A stretch of 64,000 bases of DNA from assembly GCA_036266845.1 (NCBI GenBank), contig DATAXI010000071.1:2646-66645 (forward strand), written 5' to 3'. Made by a program: the position numbers and the translations under genes. Source of the DNA: Chthoniobacteraceae bacterium (lineage in GTDB: Bacteria > Verrucomicrobiota > Verrucomicrobiia > Chthoniobacterales > Chthoniobacteraceae). The notes below the pieces were generated by a model. It saw nothing but the letters and a program-made list of their open reading frames with translations. It ran no database searches and was not told the DNA's origin. Positions 12,055 through 50,886 of this stretch are shown here, piece by piece. Positions within the stretch are counted from its first letter, which is position 1. Every line of letters begins with the position of its first letter.

Positions 12055-12170
12055 TGGCTTTTGGGGTGAGTTATATATCGCGCCCGTGCAGATTCCGCAA
12101 ATCGGACCTGAGGATTTAAAGCAAATCGGATGCCTTTTTCCTCAGATCAATGCCGAATACAGGCGAAAAC

Positions 12171-14360: not shown

Positions 14361-14499
14361 GGCGATAATCAGGATTTCTTTTAAAAAATACGGAAAAAAC
14401 GACCGCGCCGTTTCGCGCGGGGGGTAACTTCTAAACCTCCCCGAAAAATTCGCAATCCGCAATTTGCCGGGATTCTCAGGCCGAGAGGCGGAAATCGGC

Positions 14500-27883: not shown

Positions 27884-28102
27884 ATGAAACGAGAGTTTAG
27901 TGTCGTGATTGAGCGCGATGCCGAAGGCTACTTCGTAGCGAGCGTTCCTGAGTTGCATGGATGTCACACGCAGGCGCGCTCCCTCGATAAGCTACTTTCT
28001 CGCATCCGCGAGGCCATCGAGTTGTGCCTGGAGGTGGAGGGTTTCGCTGAGGCAAATGCTTCCGAGTTTGTCGGCATACAGAGGGTTGCCGTGGAGGTAT
28101 GA
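27884..28102 (+). CDS. hicB: HicB-family antitoxin (short form, UPF0150 fold only)
   Basis: FSVVIERDAEGYFVASVPELHGCHTQARSLDKLLSRIREAIELCLE. ATGA overlap with hicA. Confidence 0.85.
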   Translation: MKREFSVVIERDAEGYFVASVPELHGCHTQARSLDKLLSRIREAIELCLEVEGFAEANASEFVGIQRVAVEV

Positions 28103-28320
28103 GCCGCCTGCGGCTCCGAGGCCGCGAGCTTATCCGGGCACTCCAGAGGGCTGGCTTTACGGTGATGCGCGTCAAGGTTAGTCATCATTTCATGCGTCAC
28201 CCGGACGGGCGCACGACAGTAGTACCCGTGCATGCGGGCGAAACGATTGGGCCGGGCTTGCTCAACCAAATTCTCAGCGATATCGAACTCACAAGAGAAG
28301 AATTACAGAACCTGCTTTGA
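28099..28320 (+). CDS. hicA: HicA-family mRNA interferase toxin
   Basis: RELIRALQRAGF..., VSHHFMRHPDGRTTVVPVHAGETIGPGLLNQIL. GGAGG Shine-Dalgarno 2 nt upstream of the ATG. Confidence 0.88.
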   Translation: MSRLRLRGRELIRALQRAGFTVMRVKVSHHFMRHPDGRTTVVPVHAGETIGPGLLNQILSDIELTREELQNLL

Positions 28321-28337
28321 ACCGCGGTTCAACCCAT

Positions 28338-28362
28338 GCGGCTGGCGCAGCCGCCGGCTTTT
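28338..28362 (+). terminator. rho-independent terminator after hicA
   Basis: GCGGCTG-GCG-CAGCCGC stem-loop followed by CGGCTTTTGG. Confidence 0.5.
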
Positions 28363-28411
28363 GGATTTCAACTTTTTAAAAATGATTTAAGCTCTCAGAA
28401 ATCACCGCTCA

Positions 28412-28496
28412 GGAAGGGTGGCAGAGTGGTCTAATGCGCCGGTCTTGAAAACCGGAGTGCCGCAAGGCACCGTGGGTTCGAATCCCACCCCTTCCG
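28412..28496 (+). tRNA. tRNA-Ser (anticodon UGA), CCA not encoded
   Basis: Folds by eye: acceptor GGAAGGG/CCCTTCC, anticodon arm CCGGT-CTTGAAA-ACCGG, long variable arm GTGCC-GCAA-GGCAC, T arm GTGGG-TTCGAAT-CCCAC, discriminator G. Close to E. coli tRNA-Ser(UGA). Confidence 0.95.
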
Positions 28497-28703
28497 CCGT
28501 TTCCTAAGGCTCTCCGGTTTAGCATCTTATGGCTTCAAAGGGTGGAAAAGGTCATTGAGTATCAGTGAAGGTGTTAGTAAGACCGGATGCGTCGGGGGAT
28601 TTCTCGGAAATTCCTCATCATTCGCTGAGAAACCGCCATGGCGATCTGAAGGTTTCAAATCGTGTCCCCACAATGAAAGATACGAATGCATAATCGATAC
28701 ACA

Positions 28704-28903
28704 ATGTTCCGGCGCGGAGCAGTGTTCTATTGTGAAGCCGAACCGTCGGGCGGCAGAAAAGCCTGCTGACACGCGACGAAACGGAAGCGCAGAGAATCCT
28801 GCACGCCAAGAATGATGCGATGAACCAACCGCGCGCAGGAAAGTTTCGCCTGAGCGGGCATTTCGCGAAGGCCTACCGTCGGTCTTGCTCAAAGTGTCTC
28901 TGA
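28704..28903 (+). pseudogene. possible tyrosine-integrase N-terminal remnant (frameshifted, truncated)
   Basis: MFRRGAVFYCEAEPSGGRK then, one frame over, SLLTRDETEAQRILHAKNDAMNQP. This matches my recollection of the FRRGxxxY...GKQxSLxTxDxxEAxxLLxAKNEAxxQP N-terminus of a PVC/Acidobacteria integrase family. No catalytic domain follows. Confidence 0.35.
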
Positions 28904-28954
28904 CGTTTGATTGCCCGGTTGCGAAGCCATACCGAGTTTGATACCCTGATTTTC

Positions 28955-30439
28955 ATGTCAAGCGCCGCAATATCAGCAGCCCGCAAGCGGCAAGGGGATC
29001 TCGGACAGTTCTTCACCCCCGCGCCAGTGGCAAGCTTTATGGCTTCGATGTTCGGGCCGCTTCCCAAAGTAGTGCGCTTACTGGATGCCGGGGCGGGTGC
29101 GGGAGCTCTTACCGCAGCTTTTGTTTCGCGTCTGTGCGGAAGAAAGGATGGCGTCCGCGCCGTCGAAGCGACGCTCTACGAGATTGATCCATTCATTCAG
29201 GATGCACTTTTAGAGACGATGCAAGATTGCCGGCGTCGTTGTGCTGACGCAAATATTCTCTTTACCTTCACCATCCACGCGGCCGACTTCATTCAGGAAA
29301 TGTCGGCTGTCCTTGCCGGAGATTTATTCGGCTCTGCGCCACCCATCTTTGATGCCGCCATCGCAAACCCGCCCTACCGAAAAATCAGCACTACCTCTGC
29401 CGAAAGGCGCAAGCTGCGATATGTTGGTGTCGAAACAAGCAATCTATACGCGGCATTTATTGCTCTCATCCAGCGTGCGCTTGTCCCTGGCGGTCAACTT
29501 GTGGGCATCACACCAAGGAGTTTTTGCAATGGTCCGTATTTTCGTTCCTACCGTGAAGACTTCCTCAATAATTTGGAACTTCACAGGCTTCATGTTTTTG
29601 AATCACGCGAAGCCGCCTTTCGTGATGATAGCGTGTTGCAGGAAAATGTGATCTTCCATGCCGTAAGAGGCCAAAATCAACCACCTAAGATTGTGATTTC
29701 CAGCAGCAGCGGAGAGAGCGGATCCATTATTGAAGCGAAGGCAATCCCCTTCGCGGAAGTCGTTCATCAAAATGACGCCGAGAAGTTCATTCATATTCCT
29801 TCGACTTTAAGTCATGCAATAGCCAAAAGAGCGATGGATAACCTGCACTCAAGCCTAGCCGCCTTGGGGCTAAGTGTATCCACCGGGCGTGTAGTCGATT
29901 TTCGTGTGAAGGACGCCCTCCGCTGGAAACCGGAAGAAGGTACTGTGCCTCTAGTTTACCCGTGCCATTTCAACGGCGGCACCGTCCACTGGCCGAAACC
30001 CGAAGCGCGTAAACCCAATGCTATTCTAAACAACGATGAAACCCGTCCTTGGCTCGTCCGGTCTGGCGTATATCTGCTCACTAAGCGATTCACATCCAAA
30101 GAGGAGCGCCGCCGCTTGGTCGCTTGCATATGGGATCCCAAAACCGTCGAAGCAGAGTGGCTTGGTTTTGAAAATCATCTTAACTATTTTCATGTTAACG
30201 GACATGGAATTGATCGAAATCTAGCAGCCGGTCTATTCGTCTTTCTGAATTCCACGGTGGTTGACCAGTATTTCCGTCGCTTCAGCGGCCACACTCAAGT
30301 CAACGCCACGGACCTTCGGAAGCTCAGCTATCCAGACCGCGACACGTTGCAGGCAATGGGCGCCCAAATAAAGAGATTTGATCAATCGCAGGATGAAATT
30401 GACGAACTCGTAGAGAAATACCTTGATGCCCGCAAATAA
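28955..30439 (+). CDS. type II N6-adenine DNA methyltransferase, gamma class (PstI/BsuBI-like partner)
   Basis: Motif order X-I-IV: GQFFTP, LLDAGAGAGAL, IANPPYRK. About 495 aa, and overlaps the endonuclease gene by 14 nt. Confidence 0.85.
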   Translation: MSSAAISAARKRQGDLGQFFTPAPVASFMASMFGPLPKVVRLLDAGAGAGALTAAFVSRLCGRKDGVRAVEATLYEIDPFIQDALLETMQDCRRRCADANILFTFTIHAADFIQEMSAVLAGDLFGSAPPIFDAAIANPPYRKISTTSAERRKLRYVGVETSNLYAAFIALIQRALVPGGQLVGITPRSFCNGPYFRSYREDFLNNLELHRLHVFESREAAFRDDSVLQENVIFHAVRGQNQPPKIVISSSSGESGSIIEAKAIPFAEVVHQNDAEKFIHIPSTLSHAIAKRAMDNLHSSLAALGLSVSTGRVVDFRVKDALRWKPEEGTVPLVYPCHFNGGTVHWPKPEARKPNAILNNDETRPWLVRSGVYLLTKRFTSKEERRRLVACIWDPKTVEAEWLGFENHLNYFHVNGHGIDRNLAAGLFVFLNSTVVDQYFRRFSGHTQVNATDLRKLSYPDRDTLQAMGAQIKRFDQSQDEIDELVEKYLDARK

Positions 30440-31415
30440 GCCGAACCGCACGGGTGAATTCAGAAAACGGAAGCTTACTGAAGCCAGTGAATGCCTTGCC
30501 GCGTTACAGTTTGGCCCAAGGCAAAGAAACGAAACCGCCGCCTACACATTGCTTGCAGTACTAGACCTTCGTCCAGATGCCCCTTGGACCGAAGCTCAAG
30601 CACCGCTACGCGGCATCACGCCAATCATTGATTTCATCGCACAGACTTACGGTGTTCGCTACGCACCCAATACCCGCGAAACAATTCGTGATGATGCCGT
30701 CAAATTTTTTGTCGAGGCGGGATTACTGCTTCGGAATCCGGACAATCCGAACCGCCCGACGAACAGTGGCAAGACAGTATATCAAATAGAGCCTTCGGCA
30801 CTCGCTTTGCTCCGCAAAATCGGAACCCCTCATTGGTCGCCTGCCTTGAAGAAATACCTCATCAGTCGTGAAGGTCTGAAGCACGAAATTGCCCGCAAGC
30901 GAGACTTGGCCCGCGTGCCCGTAATGCTCCCCGATGGTTCACAAGTGGCTCTTTCACCCGGAGGCCAAAATCCGCTGATTAAGTCAATTATCGAGCAATT
31001 CTGCCCTGCATTCGCCTCCGGTGGAGTTGTCATCTATATTGGGGACACGGAAAACAAGTTTGTTCATCTCGCAACTAACAGCCTCACCTCGCTGGGAGTA
31101 ATATTGGACTCCGCGGCGAAAATACCCGATGTCATCGTTCATTACCCCGCAAAGAATTGGCTATTGCTGATTGAAGCCGTCACCAGTGCAGGGCCGGTGG
31201 ATGGAAAGCGTCGAAAGGAACTGAAAGAATTATTTGCGGGCTGCAAAGCGGGTCTGGTTTTTGTCACTGCGTTTGAGACCCGCCGTACCATGCAATCATT
31301 CTTGTCGCACATCGCATGGGAATCCGAGGTCTGGATCGCTGAAGACCCCGGCCACCTGATTCACTTCAACGGCGAGCGGTTTCTCGGGCCATATCCTGAC
31401 GTGCTGCCCAAGTGA
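30426..31415 (+). CDS. type II restriction endonuclease, BsuBI/PstI family-like
   Basis: About 329 aa and translationally coupled to the MTase. The N-terminal HTH-like region and C-terminal PDVIVHY...LLLIEAVTS...GPVDGKRRKEL (PD-(D/E)xK-like) fit my memory of this family. Not verified by search. Confidence 0.55.
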   Translation: MPANKPNRTGEFRKRKLTEASECLAALQFGPRQRNETAAYTLLAVLDLRPDAPWTEAQAPLRGITPIIDFIAQTYGVRYAPNTRETIRDDAVKFFVEAGLLLRNPDNPNRPTNSGKTVYQIEPSALALLRKIGTPHWSPALKKYLISREGLKHEIARKRDLARVPVMLPDGSQVALSPGGQNPLIKSIIEQFCPAFASGGVVIYIGDTENKFVHLATNSLTSLGVILDSAAKIPDVIVHYPAKNWLLLIEAVTSAGPVDGKRRKELKELFAGCKAGLVFVTAFETRRTMQSFLSHIAWESEVWIAEDPGHLIHFNGERFLGPYPDVLPK

Positions 31416-31627
31416 AGCATTTGCTCGGATAATGAGATGGAAATAACCAAAGTTCAAGGAATTGGACTAGCCTCTGGATCGCGAATGTTATCGTTTCGCA
31501 GGCATTCCCCATGATGGATGAAAATCAGACGCCGGTCGCGCGGATTCATCACGGCTTGCCATTTTATGGTTACGCGGCGTCTCGCGCGGTTCAGGTGGCG
31601 ATTGTCGCGGCGTTCGTGCCAGAGACA

Positions 31628-31737
31628 GAGAAGCGTTTCCTGGACTAGATCGAGCGCAACCGGAGCCATCGTCCGGGGTTACGCGTGGTCAAGAGTTGAG
31701 AAGCGTTCCCTCGGAAGAGATCGAGCGTAACTGGACC
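31628..31737 (+). repeat. imperfect ~40-bp direct repeat pair (31628-31667 and 31698-31737)
   Basis: GAGAAGCGTTTCCTGGACTAGATCGAGCGCAACCGGAGCC versus GAGAAGCGTTCCCTCGGAAGAGATCGAGCGTAACTGGACC. About 80% identity with one indel. Confidence 0.6.
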
Positions 31738-31755
31738 TCCTGTTCGTTTGATTTT

Positions 31756-33978
31756 ATGAAGATCCGTACAGCCGTAATCCTCATGGCCATGGCCGTCAGC
31801 GCCTCGGCCACGGAGTATCATGTGGCAGTATTGGGCGACGATGGAAACCCCGGCACGCCCGAAGCGCCGTTGCGTACCATCCAGCATGCCGCGGATATTG
31901 CGCAACCGGGCGATGTCATCACCGTACACTCCGGCATCTATCGGGAGCGCATTGATCCGCCGCGTGGCGGCCTCTCGGATTCGCGTCGGATTATTTATCA
32001 GGCTGCGCCCGGCGAGAAAGTCACCATCACCGGATCGGAAATCATTAAGGGGTGGAAGAGAGTAAGCGGGGATACCTGGAAGGTCGCAATCCCCAGTAAA
32101 TACTTTGGCAGTTTCAATCCTTATGGTGACTCTATCCACGGCGATTGGTTTGGTTCCAACGGCTTTGAGCACCACACCGGTGCAGTGTATCTCAATGGCG
32201 ATTGGATGATCGAGGCGCCCAACCTCGATGCCGTGCTCGCACCCGTGCGAGCCACGCCGCGTTGGTACGGGCAGGCGGATGGCGCAGGCAATGAGGAATT
32301 TGTGCTCAACCTCGAGTGGATGAAGGCTGGGGCAGTCCCTATCTTACCGGAACGAATCTCAGCGAGAAATGGATCGAGGAACGTGGCGTGCGCGGAAGGC
32401 GGATCATGCGTCGGCTTTATTCGTGACGGGGACTGGTTGCGGTATAATAAGGTCGATTTCGGCTCTGGGACGGACGGAATTGACCTTCGTGTCGCCTCGG
32501 TGTCGCAGGTGACGAACATTGAACTCCGGCTCGACAACGCGGAGGGCGAATTGCTCGGCACGGCGCATTGCGTCCCGACGGGAGGATGGCAGCGATGGGC
32601 GACCATCCACGCGGATATTAAGCACCTTTCGGGAAAGCATTCGCTCTGTGTGGTCTTCAAGGCGCCGCCCGTCGCCGGCGATGGAACTACCATCTGGGCG
32701 CAGTTCAAGGGGGTCGATCCAAACCACGCCGACGCGGAAATCAACGTTCGCAACACTGTGTTTACGCCGCGGAAAACGGGCATCAACTATATTACCGTGC
32801 GTGGATTTACCCTGTGCGACGCCGCGACCAACTGGGCGCCGCCAACTGCCGGGCAGATCGGATTGATTACCGCTTATTGGTGCAAAGGCTGGATCATTGA
32901 AGACAATGATATTCACTGCTCCACCTGCTGCGGAGTATCCCTGGGCAAATACGGCGACCAATTTGACAATACCTCCGCCGATACCGCCAACGGCTATATA
33001 CTGACGCTCACGCGCGCGCTGAAGAATGGTTGGAATAAGGGAACCGTGGGCAGTCACATCGTGCGGAATAATCATATCTCATTTTGCGGGCAAACGGGAA
33101 TCGTCGGCAGCCTTGGCTGTTCTTACAGCACGGTCAGTGGCAATGAAATTCACGACATCCACAATCAACAGTCCTTTGGCGGCGCTGAAATGGCGGGCAT
33201 CAAGTTCCATGGCGCCATCGATGTCACTATCAGTCATAATCATATCTACCGCTGTGGCAAAGTTGCCGGTATCTGGCTGGACTGGATGGGACAGGGGGCC
33301 CAGATCGTGGGTAATCTGATGCATGATAATTCGCAGGATATCTTCCTTGAAATGCAGCATGGCCCGATCCTCGTCGCGAACAACATCCTGCTTTCCCCCG
33401 CGGTTACTCTCAATTCCCAAGGCGTCGCATTCGTGCATAATCTGATGATGGGACGGTTTGGCAGTGCCCGCGGCGATACGCGTGTGACCCCCTTTCAGGC
33501 AGTCCATTCCACGGAGGTCGCGGGAATGTATCCCGCCGCCAAGGGCGATAGCGGCGACGATCGCTTTTACAACAACCTCGTCGTCGCCCCGTGCAATCTC
33601 AACGTGCTGGACAATGCGGCGCTGCCCTGCCTCGCCGGCGGGAATGTCTATTTGAACGGCGCGCAGCCGCCGGCGTTTGATTCCAATCCGCTGACTGCCT
33701 CCGGGTTCGATCCAGACATAGCGCTGATCCGTAAGCCGGACGGTTGGTATCTGGGAATCACCCTCGATCCTGCGTGGTCTGCCGGCCCGGGACGCAAGCT
33801 CGTCACGACAGACCTCTTGGGCAAGGCGCTAGTGCCGGGGGAGGCATTTGAGAACGCTGACGGTTCCGCGCTCCGCATCGCCGCTGATTATCTTGGGGTG
33901 TCGCGCAATGCAGAAAATCCTTTCCCCGGCCCGTTCGAGGCGGCGTCCGGCATCCGGGAATCGATTAAAGTCTGGTAA
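31756..33978 (+). CDS. secreted right-handed parallel beta-helix protein with an inserted CBM6/35-like carbohydrate-binding module
   Basis: Signal peptide MKIRTAVILMAMAVSASA. DUF1565-like start YHVAVLGDDGNPGTPEAPLRTIQHAADIAQPGDVITV. CBM-like GDWLRYNKVDFG...IELRLD...GGWQRW. Repeated NN/HD beta-helix turns. Confidence 0.65.
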   Translation: MKIRTAVILMAMAVSASATEYHVAVLGDDGNPGTPEAPLRTIQHAADIAQPGDVITVHSGIYRERIDPPRGGLSDSRRIIYQAAPGEKVTITGSEIIKGWKRVSGDTWKVAIPSKYFGSFNPYGDSIHGDWFGSNGFEHHTGAVYLNGDWMIEAPNLDAVLAPVRATPRWYGQADGAGNEEFVLNLEWMKAGAVPILPERISARNGSRNVACAEGGSCVGFIRDGDWLRYNKVDFGSGTDGIDLRVASVSQVTNIELRLDNAEGELLGTAHCVPTGGWQRWATIHADIKHLSGKHSLCVVFKAPPVAGDGTTIWAQFKGVDPNHADAEINVRNTVFTPRKTGINYITVRGFTLCDAATNWAPPTAGQIGLITAYWCKGWIIEDNDIHCSTCCGVSLGKYGDQFDNTSADTANGYILTLTRALKNGWNKGTVGSHIVRNNHISFCGQTGIVGSLGCSYSTVSGNEIHDIHNQQSFGGAEMAGIKFHGAIDVTISHNHIYRCGKVAGIWLDWMGQGAQIVGNLMHDNSQDIFLEMQHGPILVANNILLSPAVTLNSQGVAFVHNLMMGRFGSARGDTRVTPFQAVHSTEVAGMYPAAKGDSGDDRFYNNLVVAPCNLNVLDNAALPCLAGGNVYLNGAQPPAFDSNPLTASGFDPDIALIRKPDGWYLGITLDPAWSAGPGRKLVTTDLLGKALVPGEAFENADGSALRIAADYLGVSRNAENPFPGPFEAASGIRESIKVW

Positions 33979-40914: not shown

Positions 40915-41080
40915 GGAAAGGGGAAAAGAAGCATGGAACACCGCTCGCGCGGAAGGTCAAGGCCTGCCGGGCGGAAAGACCACCGGCATTTCAGGGAAAG
41001 CCCCGATGGCCAAAACCGAATTCCGCGTTATTCTGGCCGCCGCGTGACCGGCCAGGGATGCAGGGTGGCTGGTCACCCGG

Positions 41081-41121
41081 ATCGGCTGCTTTCCTACGAG
41101 GGAGGCAGCCGATTTTTGTTT
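41081..41121 (+). terminator. strong rho-independent terminator with no upstream plus-strand gene (leader of the 41365 operon or 3' end of an sRNA)
   Basis: ATCGGCTGC-(15 nt loop)-GCAGCCGAT followed by TTTTTGTTT. Preceded by a second 11-bp hairpin at 41044-41076 (GTGACCGGCCA/TGGCTGGTCAC). Confidence 0.6.
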
Positions 41122-41364
41122 GGGCGGAGGGGGCGTGTCACAAAAATGTAACAATGAACCGCTTGGGGCGCTGGAGTGGCCGGTGGTAAGTAATCCGGCC
41201 CTTCATTTTTCGAGGGAATGCCCCCGGTACACCGGGCGCGCTTCGCGGCGGCGGTGGGTCTTGCATTGAAATCTGCGCCGGGAACGGCGTGAGTCAATGA
41301 CCCCTCCATCGTTTCGGGCGGCCCAGGCCGGGAATATTTTTTCCTTGGAAATCGATAGATAGAA

Positions 41365-43101
41365 ATGAGCCCGCCGCCCTGCCGCCACAATGCAGTTCTG
41401 CCGCCCGGAGCGCCCCTGCGCCGCGCGCTTTGCCGTGCCGCCATGGCGGCATTGCTCGCCGTGGGCGGGATGCGTGGGGAGGCCGCGCAGAGCGCCCAGC
41501 CGGCAACCAGCGGAACGGGCGCCGGCGCGCAGCAAACGGCGAAGGGGAAAGCGGGCGCGCAGCCACAGGCCCAGGCGCCGGAGCCGGAGTTTTACATCCG
41601 GGAGTACCGGGTGCGCGGCACTCATCACCTTAGCCCCATCGACGTACAGCGGGCGGTCTATCCTTTCCTCGGGCCCGGCCGGACCGCGGCGGATGTCAAT
41701 TCCGCGCGCGAGGCGTTGCAAAAAGCTTACGAGACGAAGAATTACACCGCCGTCAATGTCACCGTGCCGCCGCAGACCGGGGCGGGCGGCGTCGTCTTCC
41801 TGCAGGTGGATGAGAACCCGGTCGGCCGCCTGCGGGTGCATGGCTCGCGCTATTACGATATTAACGATATCAAGCGGGCAGTGCCGTCGCTGGCGGAGGG
41901 GAACATCGTCAATTTCTCCCAGGTTCAGAAAGAGATGGTGGGCATCAACCAGTTGCCCGACCGGCGCGTCACCCCCTCCATCCAGGCCGGTGCGGCGCCG
42001 GGCACCATGGATGTGGACCTGAACGTCAAGGATACCCTGCCGCTGCACGGCAGCGTGGAGTTGAACAACCGCTACAGCGCGGATACCCCGCCGCTCCGGC
42101 TCAACGCCTCCGTGAGCTATGACAACCTCTGGCAGGCCGGCAATTCCATCGGCGGCAGCGTCCAGGTCTCGCCGCAGAACGTCAGCAAGGTGAACGTCTA
42201 TACCGGCTTTTACACGTTGCGGTTTCCAAACGTGGATTGGCTCTCCTTTACCCTCCAGGGGACCAAGCAGAACAGCAATGTCTCCACGCTCGGCTCCATC
42301 GATGTCACCGGACGCGGCGATATCATCGGGCTCAATACCAACTTTAAACTGCCCACCATGGGCGATTACTTCCAGAACTTCACGTTCGGCATCGCGTACA
42401 AGGAGTTCGATCAAAACGTGGAAATCGGCGTGCCGGGCACCACCACCACGGCCACCGAGACGCCCACCACGTACCTGCCGCTGACTCTCGATTACTCCGG
42501 CACCCGGGTCGATCCCTCCTCGCTCACCGATCTCGATCTCCAGGTGGTGCTCAATCTCCGCGGCATCGGCAGCAACGCCACCCAATTCACCAACAATCGC
42601 TACGGCGCGGATCGCAATTTCATCTACTTCCGCGGGGATACGTCGCGCACGCAGGATATCTGGGGCGGCGCGCAGCTTTACGCGAAGGTGGGCGGCCAGG
42701 TTTCCGATTCCCCGCTCATCAACAGCGAGCAGTTCAGCGTGGGCGGCCTCGGCACCGTCCGCGGCTATCTGGAGTCCGAGGTGCTGGGCGATGACGCCGT
42801 TATCTTCAACTTCGAGGCGCGCACGCCATCGCTGCTTTCCTGGATCAAAGGGATCGATCCCAACAAGCCGAGCGATGAGTGGCGGTTCTACTTTTTTACC
42901 GATGCCGGCGCGGCCTCCATCCAGGATCCGCTGCCGGATCAGACGGAGCGCTACTCCCTGGCCAGCTATGGCGGCGGCACGCGGCTGACGCTGCTCAATC
43001 ACTTCAACGGCTCGCTGGACCTCGCGATTCCCCTCTTTACCCAAGTTAATACCAAAGCGCACAACCCGTTCCTGACCTTCCGCGTCTGGACCGACTTCTG
43101 A
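41365..43101 (+). CDS. ShlB/FhaC/HecB-type (TpsB, Omp85 superfamily) POTRA-domain outer-membrane transporter
   Basis: FYIREYRVRGTHHLSPIDVQRAVYPFLG... (POTRA), LRVHGSRYY, GSVELNNRYSADT, LGGLGTVRGY, C-terminal ...LTFRVWTDF. Alternative start at 41443. Confidence 0.82.
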   Translation: MSPPPCRHNAVLPPGAPLRRALCRAAMAALLAVGGMRGEAAQSAQPATSGTGAGAQQTAKGKAGAQPQAQAPEPEFYIREYRVRGTHHLSPIDVQRAVYPFLGPGRTAADVNSAREALQKAYETKNYTAVNVTVPPQTGAGGVVFLQVDENPVGRLRVHGSRYYDINDIKRAVPSLAEGNIVNFSQVQKEMVGINQLPDRRVTPSIQAGAAPGTMDVDLNVKDTLPLHGSVELNNRYSADTPPLRLNASVSYDNLWQAGNSIGGSVQVSPQNVSKVNVYTGFYTLRFPNVDWLSFTLQGTKQNSNVSTLGSIDVTGRGDIIGLNTNFKLPTMGDYFQNFTFGIAYKEFDQNVEIGVPGTTTTATETPTTYLPLTLDYSGTRVDPSSLTDLDLQVVLNLRGIGSNATQFTNNRYGADRNFIYFRGDTSRTQDIWGGAQLYAKVGGQVSDSPLINSEQFSVGGLGTVRGYLESEVLGDDAVIFNFEARTPSLLSWIKGIDPNKPSDEWRFYFFTDAGAASIQDPLPDQTERYSLASYGGGTRLTLLNHFNGSLDLAIPLFTQVNTKAHNPFLTFRVWTDF

Positions 43102-43119
43102 CCCACTCATCTCTCCGCC

Positions 43120-45003
43120 ATGCAACTCCTCAATCCGCTCCGCATCCTCCAGCGCCGGCTGCTGCTCTGCGCGCTGGCCGTCCTCACGCTCTCCGCCACC
43201 GCCAATGCCTGGTGGGACGGCGATTGGAGCATCCGCAAGAAAATCACCATCGACACCGGCAGCACCGGCGTGTCGATCGACAGCCCCATCGGCGCCAGCG
43301 CCGTCCTGCTGCGGCTCAGCGATGGGGATTTCAACTTCCAGGCGGCCAAGGAGGATGGCAGCGATATCCGCTTTGTCGCCGCGGACGACAAGACGCAACT
43401 GACTTACCACATCGAGCATTTCGACTCGCTCATGAGCGAGGGCTTCGTTTGGGTGAAAGTGCCGGACCTCAAGCCCGGCGCGCAGACCACCATCTGGATG
43501 TATTACGGCAATAGCGGCCAGAAGGCGACCAACGTCCAGGACCCAAAGGGCACGTACGATTCCGGCACCGTGCTGGTTTATCACTTCGGGGAGAAAAACG
43601 CGCCGTTCATCGACGCCTCCGGCAATAACAACACGTCCAAGGCCGCCGCGCCCACGGCGGACGCGATCATCGGCAGCGGCCTGCGCCTGACGGGCAGGAG
43701 TCCGGTGACCATTCCCGCATCGGCTTCGCTCCGGGTTTTCCCCGGCGGCTCATGGAGCTGGCAGGCATGGATCAAGCCCGGCACGCTGGCGGCCAACTCG
43801 GTCATCTTCAGCCGGTACGACGGCACGGGCGGCCTGGTCATTGGCCTGGACAACGGCGTTCCCTTTGCCGAAATCTCCGGCCAGCAGGGCTTAAAGCGTA
43901 CCGTCGCCGGCGCGGCCATCCCGGTAAACACCTGGCATCACCTTGCCGTGGTCGCCGCCCCGGGCAAGGTGACGCTTTTTCTGGATGGCGATCCCTACGG
44001 CGCTCCGCTTGCCGCCGATCTTCCGGGTCTCAATACCGACATGACCATCGGGGCCGATACCGCGGCGGGCTCCAAGCGGCCCGGTTTCCTGGGAGACATG
44101 GACGAGCTTCAGATCGCCAAGGTCGCCCGCCCGGACGGTTTCGTGAAATTTGCCTCCGTCAGCCAGGGCGGCAGCGATGCTTCCAACAAGCTGGTGGCCG
44201 TGGGACCGGATGAGCAGACCAGCACCTGGCTCAGCGGCAACAGCACCTTCGGCATCCTCATACGCTCCCTCACGCCGGACGGCTGGGCGGTCATCTGCCT
44301 CCTCACCGTCATGGCCATCGTGAGCTGGACCGTCATGTTCACCAAGGGCTCTTTTTTGAATAAGAACGCCAGGGGCAGCACTCATTTCATGAAGGCGTGG
44401 CGTCATGTCGCCAGCGATCTCACGGTGCTCGACGGCGGCGATATGGAATCCGCGAAGAGTCTCGGCGGCCATGTGGACAAGAAGACGCAGAAGGCGCTGC
44501 GCCAGGCGTGCATCTACCATATTTACCACGCCGGCGTCGAAGAGCTGCGGCACCGCATGTCCGATTCCACGGACGAGCGCGTCCTTTCCCCGCAATCCAT
44601 CCAGGCAATCCGCGCCACGCTGGACGGCGTCATGGTGCGGGAGAGCCAGCGGCTGAACAAGGCGATGGTCTTCCTCACGATCGCCATCTCCGGCGGGCCG
44701 TTCCTCGGGCTGCTCGGCACGGTCGTCGGCGTCATGATCACCTTTGCCGCCATTGCCGCCGCGGGCGATGTGAACGTGAACGCCATTGCCCCCGGCATCG
44801 CCGCCGCGCTGCTGGCCACCGTCGCCGGCCTGGCGGTCGCGATTCCCGCGCTCTTCGGGTACAACTACCTCATCTCCCGCATCAAGGAAGCCACGAGCGA
44901 CATGCACGTTTTCACGGATGAATTCGTCACCAAGCTGGCCGAGTTCTACCGGCCCCGCGGCGAAAGCAAAATCGACGGCGCCGACGCGGCTTCCGTCCAC
45001 TAA
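43120..45003 (+). CDS. fusion protein: signal peptide + DUF2341-like + LamG/concanavalin-like periplasmic modules + MotA/TolQ/ExbB proton-channel domain
   Basis: WWDGDWSIRKKITID...DGSDIRFV...WVKVP...IWMYYGN (DUF2341-like). LamG-like NTWHHLAVV...LFLDG. Then 3 TMs with GGPFLGLLGTVVGVMITF and AAALLATVAGLAVAIPALFGYNYL. Confidence 0.82.
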   Translation: MQLLNPLRILQRRLLLCALAVLTLSATANAWWDGDWSIRKKITIDTGSTGVSIDSPIGASAVLLRLSDGDFNFQAAKEDGSDIRFVAADDKTQLTYHIEHFDSLMSEGFVWVKVPDLKPGAQTTIWMYYGNSGQKATNVQDPKGTYDSGTVLVYHFGEKNAPFIDASGNNNTSKAAAPTADAIIGSGLRLTGRSPVTIPASASLRVFPGGSWSWQAWIKPGTLAANSVIFSRYDGTGGLVIGLDNGVPFAEISGQQGLKRTVAGAAIPVNTWHHLAVVAAPGKVTLFLDGDPYGAPLAADLPGLNTDMTIGADTAAGSKRPGFLGDMDELQIAKVARPDGFVKFASVSQGGSDASNKLVAVGPDEQTSTWLSGNSTFGILIRSLTPDGWAVICLLTVMAIVSWTVMFTKGSFLNKNARGSTHFMKAWRHVASDLTVLDGGDMESAKSLGGHVDKKTQKALRQACIYHIYHAGVEELRHRMSDSTDERVLSPQSIQAIRATLDGVMVRESQRLNKAMVFLTIAISGGPFLGLLGTVVGVMITFAAIAAAGDVNVNAIAPGIAAALLATVAGLAVAIPALFGYNYLISRIKEATSDMHVFTDEFVTKLAEFYRPRGESKIDGADAASVH

Positions 45004-45052
45004 CGCGGCCTGATCCAGTACATCTCCCGGCCCCCACTCAAGCCCACCCGCC

Positions 45053-45457
45053 ATGCAAATCCAGGAAGACAAACCTTACGACGACATCAACATCACGCCG
45101 ATGCTCGATCTGGCGTATGTGCTCCTCGTCATCTTCATCCTCATGTGCACGGCCTCCGTGCAGGGCATGAAGGTGAACCTGCCGCATGCCAGCAACACGC
45201 CGCAACCGCCGCTGGCCAAGCCCAAGACCCAGGCCATCACCGTCAATAACGAGGGGAAATATTTCCTCAATACCTCGCCCGCCACGCTGCCGGAGATTCA
45301 GCAAAAGCTGACCGCGCTCAAGGCGGCAAATCCCGACCTGCCGGTCGTCATCCGCGGCGATAGCCAGACGCAATACCAGGCCATCATGGATGTGCTGACC
45401 GTGGTCGGCAACCTGGGCATCACCCAGGTGGGCCTCGCAACGAAACCGGCCAAGTAA
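45053..45457 (+). CDS. exbD: biopolymer transport protein ExbD/TolR
   Basis: DINITPMLDLAYVLLVIFIL followed by a periplasmic domain with PVVIRGDSQTQYQAIMDVL. Confidence 0.9.
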   Translation: MQIQEDKPYDDINITPMLDLAYVLLVIFILMCTASVQGMKVNLPHASNTPQPPLAKPKTQAITVNNEGKYFLNTSPATLPEIQQKLTALKAANPDLPVVIRGDSQTQYQAIMDVLTVVGNLGITQVGLATKPAK

Positions 45458-45478
45458 ACCGCAGCTTTCCCTGACTCG

Positions 45479-46198
45479 ATGCCCGCATTCGACGATGAAG
45501 AGGACGACAGCACTTTTGTCCAGCGCCACCGGGGGCTGGTCATTATTGCCGTATTGCTCGTCCTCGGAGTGGGCATTTACTTTGCCGTCAAGGCCCTCTC
45601 TCACGGGGTGCAATCGCGGAGCAGCGATATCATGACCATCAGCCTGCCGCCATTGCCGCCGCCACCGCCTCCGCCGCCGCGCAATACGCCCACCCCGCCT
45701 CCGCAGCAGCAGCCGACCCCCGAGCAGCAGGAGCAGAAGATGGAGCAGCAGCAGCCCGTACAGGAGGAGAAAAAGGAAGAGGCTCCCAAGGATAAGCCGC
45801 CGGATGCGCCCGCGCCGCTCGGCACCAGCATTACAGGCCCAGGCGGCGGCCAGGATCTTGGCCTCAGCTCCGGCCTGGGCGGCGGCGGCGGCTGGGGCCG
45901 CGGCGGACCCGGCGGCACCAAGTATGGCTGGTACGCCACCGAGGTGCAAAAGTCCATTGCCGAGGCGCTCCGCAAAAATCCTCAAACCCGCAAAGCTTCC
46001 ATGAACGTTGTCGTCCGCATCTGGCCGGACTCCACGGGCCGCATTACCAAGGTCCGCGTATCCAGCCAGGGCATTGACGACAAAACGCGCCAGGCCCTCC
46101 AGGATGAGGTGCTCAATGGACTTCAATTAACCGACCCACCACCGGCCGACATGCCGCTACCCATCGTCATGCGCCTTTCCGCAACCCGCCCACAATGA
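45479..46198 (+). CDS. TonB-family energy transducer
   Basis: N-terminal TM, a Pro-rich spacer (PPLPPPPPPPPRNTPTPPP), and a C-terminal TonB_C-like domain (YGWYATEVQKSIAEAL...VVVRIWPDSTGRITKVRV). Confidence 0.8.
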   Translation: MPAFDDEEDDSTFVQRHRGLVIIAVLLVLGVGIYFAVKALSHGVQSRSSDIMTISLPPLPPPPPPPPRNTPTPPPQQQPTPEQQEQKMEQQQPVQEEKKEEAPKDKPPDAPAPLGTSITGPGGGQDLGLSSGLGGGGGWGRGGPGGTKYGWYATEVQKSIAEALRKNPQTRKASMNVVVRIWPDSTGRITKVRVSSQGIDDKTRQALQDEVLNGLQLTDPPPADMPLPIVMRLSATRPQ

Positions 46199-48120
46199 TC
46201 CTTCGCATTGCTCTCCTGATTTCCCTGCTTGGCTCCGCGCTCACCGTGCGCGCGGCCAATGCCCCTGCCGCCTCGCCATCGCCGATGCCCGCGGCAGCGC
46301 CATCGCCCGCCGTCAGCGGCACCGGAAAACTGCCCGGCAACGATCCCGCGCTCTTTGCAAACAGCCTCCCGCTGCACACCGGTCCCGCAGTCTCCGGCGC
46401 CTCGCCGGATTCACCCTCCACCAGCTTTGCGGTCGATCTGCTGCGGCGCCTGGTCAAGAAGGGCATCCTCAATCAGGACGATGCCGATCAATTGACCAAA
46501 GAGGCGCAGGCCGATGTCCAATCCGCCCACGCCCAGGAGCAGGCGGATGCCAGCCAGGCCTCCCAGGCTGTCGTCGCCCAGGTAACCCAGAAAGTCCAGG
46601 AGATGACCCCGCCGCCCCCCAGCGACGACGAGGTGCGCGTGCCGTACATCCCCGACAATGTGAAGGAGGAGATGGCCAGCGAGGTTAAAAATGAGGTCAT
46701 GCAACAGGCCCGCACGGAAAATTGGGCCAGCCCGCGCGCCATTCCGGATTGGGTCAATCACTTCCGCTTCAGCGCCGACGTGCGGACCCGTTACGAGGGC
46801 GATTTCTTCCCGAACACCAACGACGCCACCGGCGCTTTCCCGAACTTTAACGCCATCAACACCGGCGCTCCGTTCGATGTGGCAGGCACGGAGTTCTCTC
46901 CGCAGTATGACGTGAATCAGGACCGCGAGCGGTTCCGCTTCCGCGCCCGGCTGGGGGCGGATGTCGATCTGGACCAGGGCTTCAGCATGGGCATTCGGCT
47001 CGCCAGCGGCCAGGATGACTCGCCGGTTACGGAAAACCAGACGCTCGGCGTTGCCAATGACGGCCAGGGCGGCAATTTCAGCAAATATTCCGTCTGGCTC
47101 GACCGCGCATTCCTGAAGTGGGAGTACGAGGTGGATAATGACCGCGACAAGGATTTCTCCGTTGTCGTGGGCCGGCAGGATAATCCTTTCTTCGGCACCA
47201 CGCTCGTCTGGGCGCGCGACCTCGGGTTTGACGGCCTGACCGTGGAGGGCCGCTATAATGTCGGCAAAGGTTTTACCCCCTTCCTGACCGGCGGCGCGTA
47301 TCCGGTCTTCAATACGGACTTCAACTTTGCCTCCAATCAGCCCTCCAAGTATGAGAGCGAGGACAAGTACCTTTTTGCCGTCCAGGCGGGCGCCAACTGG
47401 ACCATCAATAAGGACTTGAACGCGAAGGTCGCCGGCGCGCTTTATTACTTCGAGAATCTGGAAGGGCATCTTTCCGACCCGTTTGTGCCGCTCTCCGCAT
47501 CGGACCAGGGTAATACGGACGACAGCCGGCCGGCCTTTGCGCAGAACGGCAATACCTATTTCCCCATCCGCGACATTATCCCGACGGCGCAGAATGATTA
47601 CGGGACCATCGACCAATACCAGTATTACGGCCTCGCGTCGCCGTTCCATGAACTCGATTTCACGGGCCAGTTGAACTATGACCGCTTCGCCCCGATCCGT
47701 GTCTCGCTGATCGGCGAGTTTGTCGATAACCTTGCATTCAACGGCTCCAAGATCGGCGCCATTGCGGTCAATAACCGCGGGCCGGACACCGCCTCCGGGG
47801 CGCTCGGCAATTTCGAGGGCGGCAGCAACGGCTGGATCATCACCCTGACCGCCGGCGATGCCGCTCTGGAGAAACTGTGGGACTGGAGTGTCAATGTCGG
47901 CTACCGGTACCTTCAGACGGATTGCACCGTGGACGGCTTCAACGATTCCGACTTCGGCGCCCCCCTCTATGGCACCAACCTCAAGGGCTACACCATCGGC
48001 GGAAATCTTGCGCTGGGGGAGCGCGTCTGGCTGGGGCTGACCTTGATGAGCGCCGATAGCATCGTGGGGCCGCCCTTCAAGAGCGACGTCGTCCAGTTTG
48101 ACATCAACGGAAAATTCTAA
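46195..48120 (+). CDS. putative outer-membrane beta-barrel (putative-porin family-like) with ~190-aa N-terminal periplasmic extension
   Basis: Signal peptide ...LTVRAANA, alternating-polarity strands, Gly/aromatic-rich, C-terminal ...VQFDINGKF. ATGA overlap with the tonB-like gene. Confidence 0.65.
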   Translation: MILRIALLISLLGSALTVRAANAPAASPSPMPAAAPSPAVSGTGKLPGNDPALFANSLPLHTGPAVSGASPDSPSTSFAVDLLRRLVKKGILNQDDADQLTKEAQADVQSAHAQEQADASQASQAVVAQVTQKVQEMTPPPPSDDEVRVPYIPDNVKEEMASEVKNEVMQQARTENWASPRAIPDWVNHFRFSADVRTRYEGDFFPNTNDATGAFPNFNAINTGAPFDVAGTEFSPQYDVNQDRERFRFRARLGADVDLDQGFSMGIRLASGQDDSPVTENQTLGVANDGQGGNFSKYSVWLDRAFLKWEYEVDNDRDKDFSVVVGRQDNPFFGTTLVWARDLGFDGLTVEGRYNVGKGFTPFLTGGAYPVFNTDFNFASNQPSKYESEDKYLFAVQAGANWTINKDLNAKVAGALYYFENLEGHLSDPFVPLSASDQGNTDDSRPAFAQNGNTYFPIRDIIPTAQNDYGTIDQYQYYGLASPFHELDFTGQLNYDRFAPIRVSLIGEFVDNLAFNGSKIGAIAVNNRGPDTASGALGNFEGGSNGWIITLTAGDAALEKLWDWSVNVGYRYLQTDCTVDGFNDSDFGAPLYGTNLKGYTIGGNLALGERVWLGLTLMSADSIVGPPFKSDVVQFDINGKF

Positions 48121-48125
48121 ACGCC

Positions 48126-48779
48126 ATGAAACGACATCCTTATCTCCTCATCGCAGGCTTCGCGCTGGTCACGATTCTCTCCGCGCGCGGCGACGATGCC
48201 AACAGCCCGGAAAACCGTTTGCGCGAGATGCTCAAGAATACCATCGTGCAATTGCGCACCGCCGAGCAGCAAAACGATACGCTCCAGTCCCAGGTGACCG
48301 ATTTGCAGAGCCAGATCAGCGATCTCACCAAAAAACTGGCCGACCTGACCAAGAAGGACGCCGATACCCAGGTCACGGATTCCAAGACGATCGGGGAATT
48401 GAGGTCCCGCGTCTCCGATCAGGAGACGAGCATCGCCACGCTTCAGCAAGACCTCGGGCAGTGGAAGGATGCGGAGAAAAAAGCGGTCGCCATGGCCAAT
48501 GACACCGAGGGCAAGCGCGCGAAGCTGGCGGACCTCTCGATCCATCTCCAGCGAACCGTCGATGACCAGAAGCGGAAAAATACCCAGATGTACCAGTTGG
48601 GGATGGAAGTGCTGAACCGGTACGAGAAATTTGGCCTGGGCGATGCGCTCACCGCCAAGGAGCCGTTCATCGGCGTCACCCGCACCAAGTTCGAGACGCT
48701 GGTGCAGGATTACGAAGACAAATTGACAGACCAGTTGATTACCGACCAAAAGACCGCTGATACTAAACCGAAACCGTAA
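48126..48779 (+). CDS. secreted coiled-coil protein (hypothetical)
   Basis: Signal peptide MKRHPYLLIAGFALVTILSARG, then heptad-like Q/L/D/T-rich sequence. 5-nt gap after the barrel gene. Confidence 0.7.
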   Translation: MKRHPYLLIAGFALVTILSARGDDANSPENRLREMLKNTIVQLRTAEQQNDTLQSQVTDLQSQISDLTKKLADLTKKDADTQVTDSKTIGELRSRVSDQETSIATLQQDLGQWKDAEKKAVAMANDTEGKRAKLADLSIHLQRTVDDQKRKNTQMYQLGMEVLNRYEKFGLGDALTAKEPFIGVTRTKFETLVQDYEDKLTDQLITDQKTADTKPKP

Positions 48780-48783
48780 ACCG

Positions 48784-49683
48784 ATGCCCCGTTCTCTTTT
48801 TCTCTCCGCCCTTCTCTCCCTCTCCCTGTGCGCCGTCCCGTTGATGCATGCGGCCGACGATTCGCAGGTGATCGCCCGTGTGGGCGATTCCCAGGTGACC
48901 GCCGATGATATCCGCAGCGCCATCCAGAACCTGGATGCCAATACCCAGGCAGCCGCGGCAAAAGACCCTGCCGCGCTCAGCCAGGTGGTGCGCGCCATCC
49001 TCACCCAGCGCCTCATTCTCAAGGAGGCGCTTGCCAGGAAGTGGGATCAGGATCCCGCGGTGACCGCCGCGCTGGCCCGTGTCCGCGATGGCGTGATCGC
49101 GCAGAGTTTTCTCGATTCCGTCTCCAAGCCTCCCGCCAGCTACCCCTCCGATGCCGAAGTGCAGGCCGCCTACGATGCGAACAAATCGCAACTCGTGGTC
49201 CCGCGGCAGTATCAGCTCGCCCAGATTTTCATCAAGTGCCCGAAGAATGCCGACGCCGCCACCGCCGCAAAGGCGCAGGTAAAGCTGGATGGCATCCGCA
49301 AGGCGCTGGCCAGGCACAACGCCGATTTTTCCTCGGTCGCCCGCGCGGAAAGCGATGAGCCGGAGAGCGCCGCAAAGGGCGGGGAACTGGGCTGGCTGGC
49401 CGAGAACCGCATCCAGCCGGAGATCCGCGCGCAGCTCGGCAACCTGACCAAGGGAACCGTGACGCAGCCGATCCGCCTGGACGATGGCTGGCACATCCTG
49501 AAGGTGCTCGATATCAAGGAGCCCTACACGCCGGAGTTGTCCGAGATCAAGACCCAGCTTATCGCCAGAATGCGCACTGAAAAGGAGCGCCAGAACAGCC
49601 AGCAGTACATCGCCAAGCTGGTCGAGCAAAACCCGATCCAGCTCAATGAGCTTGGCCTCTCCAAGGTATTGAAGCCCGAGTAA
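48784..49683 (+). CDS. SurA/PpiD-like parvulin-type peptidyl-prolyl cis-trans isomerase
   Basis: Signal peptide, an N-terminal chaperone-like region, and a parvulin core (FSSVARAESDEPESAAKGGELGWL...DGWHILKV). Confidence 0.85.
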   Translation: MPRSLFLSALLSLSLCAVPLMHAADDSQVIARVGDSQVTADDIRSAIQNLDANTQAAAAKDPAALSQVVRAILTQRLILKEALARKWDQDPAVTAALARVRDGVIAQSFLDSVSKPPASYPSDAEVQAAYDANKSQLVVPRQYQLAQIFIKCPKNADAATAAKAQVKLDGIRKALARHNADFSSVARAESDEPESAAKGGELGWLAENRIQPEIRAQLGNLTKGTVTQPIRLDDGWHILKVLDIKEPYTPELSEIKTQLIARMRTEKERQNSQQYIAKLVEQNPIQLNELGLSKVLKPE

Positions 49684-49687
49684 CGGC

Positions 49688-49711
49688 GGGGCGGGGAAAA
49701 TATCCCGCCCC
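49688..49711. terminator. GC hairpin between convergent genes (possible bidirectional terminator)
   Basis: GGGGCGGG-GAAAATAT-CCCGCCCC. No clear U-tract on either strand. Confidence 0.35.
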
Positions 49712-49926: not shown

Positions 49927-50886
49927 CTATGACGCTCCGATCAGGATTCCGGCGATGAACACCAGCACGCCTCCCACCACCACCTGGAAGGCCGCGGAGA
50001 GCAGCGGCGTATCCATGTACCGGTGCCGCACCCAGGCGATCACCAGCAGTTCCACGACCACCACCATCACCGCCAGCACAAACGCGAAATGAAAACTGCG
50101 GGCGATGAATGGCAGGCTGTGGCCCAGGCCGCCGATGGCGGTCATCAGCCCGCAAATGCCGCCGCGCGCCCAGGGATGGCCGCGGCCGCTCAGCGCGCCA
50201 TCATCGGATAGCGCCTCCGCAAAGCCCATGCTGATGCCCGCGCCCACGGAGGCAGCCAGGCCCACCAGGAGCGTCTGTTTGGTATCGTGCGTCGCAAATG
50301 CCGCCGCAAAGAGGGGCGCCAGCGTGGAAACCGAGCCATCCATCAATCCCGCCAGTCCCGGCTGGACGATTTGCAGGACAAAGAGCCGCCGTTTTGCCTC
50401 TTCCTCCTCCTTCCGCTCGTTTGGGGAAATGCCCTTGTCCTCCAGCGATTCCGCAAGGTGCGTGTGCTCGCGCTCGATTTCCGCCAGGTCGCCCAGCAAC
50501 TTCCGCGTGCCGACATCGGTGGTGCGTTGCATCGCGGCTTCGTAAAAGCGCGTCGTTTCCATCTCCATCACCGCGGCCGCGTTGCGCACTTTGTGAAGGC
50601 TCAGCGTCGCTCCCAGCCAGAATGGCTTGTGCTGGGTAAAGCCCTTCACGTCCGATCTGCGGATCAGCGGCAGGTGATCGCCAAAGCGGCTCTTGTATTG
50701 GTCCAGCAGCCTCCGGCGATGCTCGGATTCCTCATCGCGCATCTGCTCGAAGATGCGGGCCGTGGCCGGAAAATTCTTTTTGAGCCCCTCCGCGAACTCG
50801 CCGTAAATCCGTCCATCCTCTTCCTCCAGGCTCACCGCAAGCGCGAGGATTTCCCGTTCTCCCAGGTCTTTGAATGAGAGCGGCAT
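49927..50886 (-). CDS. ferritin-like (erythrin) domain fused to VIT1/CCC1 iron transporter (MbfA-like iron exporter)
   Basis: N-terminal EEEDGRIY...MRDEESEHRRRL di-iron motifs plus a C-terminal 5-TM VIT1 domain. Confidence 0.8.
   Translation of the reverse strand: MPLSFKDLGEREILALAVSLEEEDGRIYGEFAEGLKKNFPATARIFEQMRDEESEHRRRLLDQYKSRFGDHLPLIRRSDVKGFTQHKPFWLGATLSLHKVRNAAAVMEMETTRFYEAAMQRTTDVGTRKLLGDLAEIEREHTHLAESLEDKGISPNERKEEEEAKRRLFVLQIVQPGLAGLMDGSVSTLAPLFAAAFATHDTKQTLLVGLAASVGAGISMGFAEALSDDGALSGRGHPWARGGICGLMTAIGGLGHSLPFIARSFHFAFVLAVMVVVVELLVIAWVRHRYMDTPLLSAAFQVVVGGVLVFIAGILIGAS

Follow-up and report, generated by a model that had tools for sequence, protein, structure and literature searches.

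The 64-kb stretch of DNA analysed here, referred to below as the window, belongs to a metagenome-assembled genome of the Chthoniobacteraceae (Verrucomicrobiota) and carries a cluster of seven genes (NCBI HEX4084279-HEX4084284) in which TpsB, the transporter of two-partner secretion (TPS), stands together with an ExbB-ExbD-TonB set, a Porin_5 outer-membrane protein, a coiled-coil protein and a parvulin-type peptidyl-prolyl isomerase (PPIase; Table 1). The seven open reading frames (ORFs) share the + strand and are tightly spaced, with gaps of 18, 49, 21, -4, 5 and 4 nt, the negative value corresponding to an ATGA overlap at the junction of the ORF at 45479-46198 with that at 46195-48120. A preliminary description of the locus had given the same ORFs with the same coordinates and spacing, and its domain calls hold for all seven products, TonB_2 being below threshold in the single protein and supported by the family.

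Table 1. Genes and other features of the cluster, in positions of the window
Feature	Position	Strand	Basis or remark
Conserved non-coding block 5' of tpsB, candidate promoter/operator	41135-41250	+	Pho-box-like repeat
TpsB/Omp85 transporter, PdtB subfamily (POTRA_2 + ShlB barrel)	41365-43101	+	Pfam
Stator A, DUF2341/LamG-ExbB fusion	43120-45003	+	Pfam DUF2341 + Laminin_G_3 + MotA_ExbB
Stator B, ExbD/TolR	45053-45457	+	Pfam ExbD, E = 3e-26
TonB/TolA-like transducer	45479-46198	+	TonB_2, transmembrane anchor, Pro-rich spacer
Porin_5 outer-membrane protein	46195-48120	+	Pfam, E = 8e-188
Secreted coiled-coil protein, position of PA0697	48126-48779	+	Signal peptide, coiled coil
Periplasmic parvulin-type PPIase, position of PA0699	48784-49683	+	Pfam Rotamase families
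G+C-rich hairpin, operon end vs convergent - strand genes	49688-49711	.	-22.3 kcal/mol, z = -2.9

Conservation of the module and its linkage to TpsA

Relatives of the cluster were collected by scanning a Porin_5 alignment against one genome per GTDB species, which found at least 512; the best 80 loci were analysed, their ORFs being labelled with profiles of the proteins of the window and of the N-termini of known TpsAs. These loci are almost all from Verrucomicrobiota, with Haloferula, Luteolibacter and the cultured, TpsA-linked Chthoniobacter flavus Ellin428 (L016) among them. In 60 of the 80 species-representative loci the set of six core genes is complete and follows the same order, and the exceptions lie nearly all at contig ends. 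In the canonical arrangement TpsB is followed by the ExbB fusion, one or sometimes two ExbD, the TonB-like protein, Porin_5, the coiled-coil protein, optionally the PPIase, and then a giant TpsA, the exoprotein cargo. TpsA is found directly 3' of the module in 61 of the 71 assessable Verrucomicrobial loci (86%; 9 of the 80 are cut by contig ends), where it exceeds 2,700-3,100 aa, running to the end of the fetched DNA, with its TPS domain confirmed by Pfam. No TpsA occurs within 2.7-10 kb in 10 of the 80 loci. A giant TpsA is part of the same locus also in Methylosinus, Achromobacter, Aquabacterium and Pseudomonas aeruginosa. Because 61 of the 71 assessable loci carry TpsA, the module is understood as being normally part of a two-partner secretion locus, and the earlier proposal of a system distinct from two-partner systems fails on this evidence. 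The label 'orphan' given to the TpsB describes the present locus correctly, there being no TpsA in it, but names a trait of this lineage and not of the module.

The conservation across phyla that had been suspected earlier is borne out by the gene-neighbourhood survey, which extends from the Verrucomicrobial loci to Alpha-, Beta- and Gammaproteobacteria. In P. chlororaphis (CP027656; locus L094 of our survey, 1-15027), the order reads DUF772, ShlB, DUF2341/LamG/ExbB (603 aa), ExbD, TonB_2, Porin_5, a 214-aa protein, YbjN, PPIase and LysR. Achromobacter shows the same order, preceded by a 4,266-aa protein with TPS and DUF3739 domains; on the plasmid pMSC49a of Methylosinus sp. C49 (L001, 3400-25716), the module follows a VreA-like STN protein, a sigma factor and FecR, and ends with a filamentous haemagglutinin (FHA) of more than 3,000 aa. 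Among the loci surveyed, a YbjN gene was found only in the proteobacterial ones. Six of the seven window proteins find positional counterparts by blastp in all three proteobacterial loci (E = 1e-17 to 0), the identities with the Pseudomonas, Achromobacter and Methylosinus clusters being 37-43% over the full length for TpsB, 39-53% for the ExbB fusion, 48-64% for ExbD, 35-44% for Porin_5, 28-30% for the coiled-coil protein (same position, E = 1e-17 to 1e-25) and 27-48% for the PPIase. The TonB-like protein finds only its Methylosinus counterpart by blastp, and phmmer together with TonB_2 joins the family. Neither the 5 kb before the P. chlororaphis operon nor the 10 kb after it contain a TpsA, a PAAR-motif protein being encoded upstream, and cargo-unlinked forms hence occur outside Verrucomicrobiota as well. 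At 44-64% identity, the Methylosinus cluster resembles the Verrucomicrobial one more than do those of Pseudomonas and Achromobacter, which suggests from protein similarity that the module moved horizontally between phyla.

The gene order that the preliminary description had given for P. aeruginosa proved accurate. The PUMA3/sigma-VreI regulon of that organism comprises pdtA (PA0690), phdA, pdtB, exbB2, exbD2, tonB4 and PA0696-PA0699, with PA0696 listed as 'putative outer membrane porin', PA0697 as a signal-peptide protein, PA0698 as YbjN and PA0699 as a PpiC PPIase; exbB2 and the genes that follow it are described there as functionally unknown (PMC2729926, PMC7035377). The literature search turned up no functional assignment for tonB4 or PA0696-PA0697. 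The operon is a single transcript from PphdA under joint control of PhoB and sigma-VreI (PMC4971064), and it is induced by phosphate starvation alongside secreted phosphatases (PMC7035377, PMC9769906). Equivalence to this operon was tested via the P. chlororaphis, Achromobacter and Methylosinus loci, the P. aeruginosa gene order being taken from the literature. The window's locus is a cargo-unlinked instance of an operon type already catalogued in P. aeruginosa, functionally uncharacterised.

The TpsB transporter and the search for its cargo

In the NCBI annotation TpsB starts at M27 (41443), giving a protein of 552 aa, and this is likely the true start. The motifs VRGY (L6) and FxDxG are present and conserved in the family alignment. 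A TonB box or plug helix was sought at the N-terminus and none is conserved there, the linker before POTRA1 being short, of low complexity and unconserved, so that TpsB is unlikely to be the partner of the TonB-like protein.

The cargo was searched for in the six-frame translation of the window, at E <= 10, with hidden Markov models (HMMs) of the TPS N-terminal domain and of the exoprotein body built from 55 cargo proteins. The longest ORF in the window is at most 760 aa, and the large ORFs (GreA, trigger factor, LeuA, TPR proteins and a methylase) include no Plug or TonB_dep_Rec domain. The earlier remark that neither a TpsA nor a plug-domain receptor lies in or beside the cluster thus stands after the HMM search and the inspection of large ORFs.

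Lineages without a linked TpsA

The Porin_5 tree groups the window with the loci L007, L008 and L014, and L009 joins them by gene content; all five lack TpsA, all have the PPIase, and their downstream neighbours differ. Further clades without TpsA are formed by L036 with L044 and by L049 with L054, and there are single lineages besides. Within the window's clade, the ratio of nonsynonymous to synonymous substitution rates (dN/dS) is 0.08-0.30 for all seven genes and 0.18-0.27 for TpsB; all seven genes, TpsB included, are under purifying selection. The rate of TpsB relative to that of Porin_5 has a median of 1.14 there as compared to 1.19 in TpsA-linked clades. Intact TpsB motifs and an unchanged relative rate are as expected if the cargo persists elsewhere; most likely, genomes of the window's lineage carry the cargo gene at another location.

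Two loci are disrupted. In L022 (5053-13400), which has no TpsA, the entire cluster is broken up into short ORFs, apparently through decay. In L009 (13197-18800), several genes are split, as is the flanking rubrerythrin-VIT1 gene, and this looks more like assembly frameshifts.

The motor subunits

The ExbB fusion consists of a signal peptide, a periplasmic region of ~345 aa (about residues 31-375) and a membrane part arranged as TM1, cytoplasmic loop, TM2 and TM3 (TM, transmembrane segment). Its periplasmic part, made up of DUF2341 and LamG, is lectin-like. In the AlphaFold2 (AF2) model (predicted local distance difference test, pLDDT, 82), the N-terminal part matches ConA/LamG-type carbohydrate-binding modules by Foldseek, with a TM-score of 0.74 for AbnA domain 4; other matches of the periplasmic part are the clostridial neurotoxin Hc-N and a trans-sialidase lectin domain. 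For the membrane part, the match is TolQ (TM-score 0.70-0.77, 24-26% identity). By sequence, TolQ and TolR outscore ExbB and ExbD for the motor subunits, with all scores far below the NCBIfam equivalog cut-offs; the ExbD protein, too, scores higher with TolR than with ExbD, both sub-cut-off. The names ExbB and ExbD used in the preliminary description correspond to the Pfam families MotA_ExbB and ExbD; by score, the subunits lie nearer to TolQ/TolR. Judged from sequence scores and the predicted fold, the larger motor subunit is a TolQ-like protein with a putative lectin-like domain in the periplasm. DUF2341 appendages on such stators were listed with function unknown in a 2025 survey (PMC12505986).

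The TonB-like protein has an N-terminal TM anchor at residues 19-37, a Pro-rich spacer and a C-terminal TonB_2 domain. The score of the latter in the window protein is slightly sub-threshold (20.9 vs 22 bits), and 36 of 40 family members match, the best with E = 5e-9.

The Porin_5 barrel

The AF2 model of Porin_5 (mean pLDDT 69; barrel mostly > 85) comprises a signal peptide, a disordered N-terminus, a conserved helical stalk at residues 78-174, with helices at 78-136 and 154-174, and a plug-less 16-strand barrel at 190-641. The top Foldseek match is OmpM1 (8byt; E = 8e-14, TM-score 0.74 on target, ~12% identity), and further matches are MOMP, OprB, AlgE and the coiled-coil porin DcaP. As modelled, Porin_5 combines a periplasmic stalk with a 16-strand porin barrel free of a plug, similar to OmpM1 and DcaP, and is not a TonB-dependent receptor.

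Two periplasmic elements in the N-terminal region are conserved like the barrel among 91 sequences, Proteobacteria included. Element 1 spans residues 75-92 (STSFAVDLLRRLVKKGIL), and element 2 spans residues 145-157 (DEVRVPYIPDNVK), which in the model form an extended segment of low confidence. The extended motif, DEVRVPYIP, could be a candidate analogue of a TonB box or a TolA box.

Porin_5 is also found apart from the motor. On a Methylomagnum plasmid (L012, 13716-17567) it lies beside cax and phoU, ~8 kb from a separate TpsB-TpsA pair, and in L032 (9728) it stands alone.

The coiled-coil protein and the parvulin

No Pfam family was recognised in any of the 41 members of the coiled-coil family, which share a conserved C-terminal motif (N152, L163, Y166, P180). 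The label 'TolA-binding protein' carried by the JGI annotation found no support, as neither TolA_bind_tri nor another specific family occurs in the 41 homologues; the PDB profile search likewise returned generic coiled coils only, and an identity with CpoB was dropped for these reasons. JGI places the start of the PPIase 20 codons later. A parvulin, Par27, reportedly chaperones FHA in Bordetella.

The upstream block and regulation

The ~115 nt at 41135-41250 are nearly invariant among the window, L007, L008, L009 and L014, whose coding sequences differ by a dS of ~1. The block starts with GTCAC-AAAAA-TGTAAC (41137-41152), two half-sites that form a direct repeat of 11-bp period. Such an arrangement is that of a Pho box, with its pair of 7-bp direct repeats and a 4-bp A/T-rich stretch after each of them (PMC4971064). 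The exact AATGTAAC is found just 5' of tpsB in 13 of 58 loci, distant TpsA-linked lineages included, as compared to ~0.4 expected, and in most of the 13 the half-site (T/C)GTCAC recurs upstream of it. The 16-nt repeat pattern has a single exact match in the 64 kb. A structured RNA was considered for the block and set aside: Rfam gave no match, and in the alignment, as read by eye, potential stems vary while the 'loop' sequences are conserved, which makes a DNA site the more likely interpretation of these nucleotides.

In L010, a locus lacking both TpsA and PPIase, an OmpR-family response regulator (7537-8232, +) immediately precedes tpsB on its strand, and PhoB is the NCBIfam model that it matches best (236 bits against a cut-off of 296). 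Phosphate-responsive control of the operon appears plausible in light of the Pho-box-like repeat, the regulator in L010 and the analogous P. aeruginosa operon.

Neighbouring genes and other features of the window

The surroundings are as previously described, with a divergent esterase upstream, of the SASA type, and convergent genes downstream (DUF2905, rubrerythrin-VIT1 and biotin synthase); a CHASE3-PAS kinase and a receiver-only regulator are also among the neighbours. The rubrerythrin-VIT1 gene (49927-50886, -), convergent with the operon, fuses a rubrerythrin domain to a VIT1 iron-transporter domain, and L009 has the same neighbour. The hairpin at the operon end is terminator-like without a U tract, and scans for sigma-70 promoters and terminators gave nothing above shuffled expectation. 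Between the divergent genes, at 41079-41115 (+) and ~250 nt before tpsB, lies a strong terminator-like hairpin of 17 pairs with a T run; L008 shares it, the remaining close relatives do not, and it coincides with the end of no annotated + strand gene. The G+C content drops to 0.53 at 28000-32000, from ~0.62 elsewhere in the window, and with an Eco57I-type N6-methylase ORF (28907-30439) inside it, the region is probably a horizontally acquired restriction-modification island. Finally, the GreA/GreB domains of a 615-aa ORF (3711-5558, -) are confined to its last 160 residues, so either the start is over-called or the product is GreA-like and carries a long extension at its N-terminus.

Discussion

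Based on the collective evidence, the locus is probably, if far from certainly, a Verrucomicrobial accessory apparatus of PdtAB-type two-partner (type Vb) secretion, driven by the proton-motive force, with its cargo gene unlinked here. The cargo of such a PdtA/PdtB-type apparatus would be a giant FHA-like exoprotein of 3,000-4,300 aa. The TolQ-like subunit with its lectin-like domain and the ExbD/TolR protein would form a proton-driven stator in the inner membrane. The TonB/TolA-like protein would span the periplasm and engage the N-terminal elements of Porin_5 rather than TpsB, for such elements are conserved in Porin_5 and not in TpsB. The coiled-coil protein and the parvulin may act as periplasmic scaffold and chaperone for the unfolded exoprotein en route to TpsB, and a PhoB-type regulator probably controls expression. 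With modest confidence, we favour a motor that assists the export or display of the giant exoprotein over one that gates Porin_5 for uptake or tethers the envelope.

Several points weigh against this account of the locus. TPS secretion is generally considered to be energy-independent, and well-studied giant TpsAs, FHA among them, are not known to require a motor; the part assigned to the motor in export is for this reason a conjecture. The six-frame search recovered no TPS-domain sequence and no TpsA remnant in any frame of the 64-kb window at E <= 10. The PPIase, placed above as a chaperone of the exoprotein, is optional in the module, being present in 14 of 61 TpsA-linked loci and in 6 of 10 TpsA-less loci. 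The Pho-box reading uses the proteobacterial consensus, which may not be the specificity of PhoB in Verrucomicrobiota. Mutants of P. aeruginosa in tpsA, tpsB, PA0695 and PA0696 had no phenotype in zebrafish virulence, the sole assay reported (PMC2729926).

Among the alternatives, a self-contained outer-membrane machine powered by the proton-motive force and independent of TpsA, serving envelope tethering or surface assembly with TpsA as an optional client elsewhere, is judged unlikely. It would account for the existence of TpsA-less forms in a number of single lineages and in three or more clades of multiple species, for their persistence under purifying selection beside differing downstream genes and for the P. 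chlororaphis operon, which is likewise without TpsA in the flanks surveyed. The best structural match of Porin_5, OmpM1, is an outer-membrane attachment porin, and the motor scores closer to TolQ/TolR/TolA, two further points in its favour. Yet 86% of the assessable loci do carry TpsA, and where it is missing, TpsB keeps its cargo-handling motifs and evolves at a relative rate as in TpsA-linked loci; the cluster of L022 apparently decays once TpsA is gone. Also against such a machine are the lack of a TolB, Pal or CpoB signature in the cluster and that of a surface-layer homology (SLH) domain on Porin_5. That the genes are chance neighbours, an ordinary TPS transporter next to an ordinary, unrelated Ton complex, is scarcely credible. 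The component families do occur separately as well, and L004 has a standard ExbB-ExbD-TonB_C set 8 kb away, but the genes overlap or lie no more than 49 nt apart, their P. aeruginosa counterparts are a single transcription unit (PMC4971064), and the conserved synteny, identical in 60 of 80 Verrucomicrobial loci and extending to three proteobacterial classes, effectively refutes this explanation.

Quite improbable, in our estimate, is an uptake system after the manner of HxuABC, in which TpsA would capture a substrate, perhaps a phosphate-containing one, Porin_5 would be the motor-gated import channel and the lectin domain would receive what enters. Ton systems normally energise import, which counts in favour of uptake. 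So does regulation, given the phosphate-starvation induction of the P. aeruginosa operon (PMC7035377, PMC9769906), the conserved Pho-box-like repeat upstream and the PhoB-like regulator adjoining tpsB in L010. The Methylomagnum Porin_5 beside phoU and a TPS pair would fit as well, and HxuA/B/C provide the precedent (PMC5422565). Against it stands Porin_5 itself, plug-less and of the 16-strand porin type, a passively conducting class. Moreover, no conserved periplasmic binding protein or inner-membrane transporter belongs to the cluster in the loci surveyed, and the TpsA-less clade would be without its capture component.

As it is taught, two-partner secretion is minimal and energy-independent. 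The loci surveyed show TpsB strictly co-inherited with a proton-driven stator, a transducer of the TonB/TolA kind, periplasmic helpers and a stalked porin, in no fewer than 60 species of Verrucomicrobiota and in Alpha-, Beta- and Gammaproteobacteria. It is conceivable, though on balance doubtful, that the module represents a previously unrecognised type Vb machine, energised by the proton-motive force, for the secretion or display of giant exoproteins from Proteobacteria to Verrucomicrobiota, with the TpsA-less clades showing either unlinked cargo or a second, cargo-independent envelope function. These clades, cargo-less and under purifying selection, constitute a natural experiment on the need for a linked TpsA. 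The module also covers genes of the P. aeruginosa phosphate-starvation virulence regulon that are still labelled 'function unknown', and the structural models offer testable hypotheses for exbB2-tonB4-PA0696, in which PA0696 would be a plug-less stalked porin with two periplasmic elements and each stator would present five lectin-like domains.

Comparison with known systems

With classical two-partner secretion (FhaC/FHA, ShlB/ShlA), the cluster shares POTRA_2, the ShlB barrel, VRGY and FxDxG, as well as, in its relatives, the giant TPS-domain cargo; its periplasmic parvulin presumably echoes Par27. It departs from that scheme by five additional conserved genes, among them the proton-driven stator and a second barrel, by a TpsB without a conserved N-terminal plug helix region and by an unlinked cargo gene. 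The MotA_ExbB/ExbD stator and the Pro-rich TonB_2 protein are shared with TonB-ExbB-ExbD, and the combination of a TPS pair with Ton components recurs in hxuCBA. However, ExbB of the window bears a periplasmic lectin-like domain of ~350 aa, its NCBIfam scores stay below the equivalog cut-offs, and the partner barrel is 16-stranded, plug-less and stalked, whereas TonB-dependent receptors are 22-stranded and plugged.

From the Tol-Pal system, TolQ/TolR give the stator subunits their best scores and superpositions, and the succession of motor, transducer, outer-membrane component and coiled-coil protein recalls tolQRA-tolB-pal-cpoB, yet TolB, Pal and CpoB signatures are missing from the cluster and the scores remain below the equivalog cut-offs. 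OmpM1 (Veillonella) and DcaP (Acinetobacter) combine a helical or coiled-coil stalk with a 16-strand porin barrel, as does the predicted fold of Porin_5, which differs from OmpM1 in having no SLH domain, in an identity of ~12% and in being embedded in a motor/TPS operon. Closest to the cluster is the PA0692-PA0699 operon of P. aeruginosa. The window lacks the adjacent TpsA, YbjN, the transposase-like phdA, VreA/VreI/VreR and LysR, and comes from a different phylum. The two have in common the order of TpsB, long ExbB, ExbD, TonB, porin, small signal-peptide protein and PpiC, as well as a Pho-box-like element upstream, and the orthologous locus of P. chlororaphis, with proteins 27-48% identical to those of the window, has the same Pfam domains as the window, including DUF2341 and LamG on ExbB and the Porin_5 family of the second barrel.

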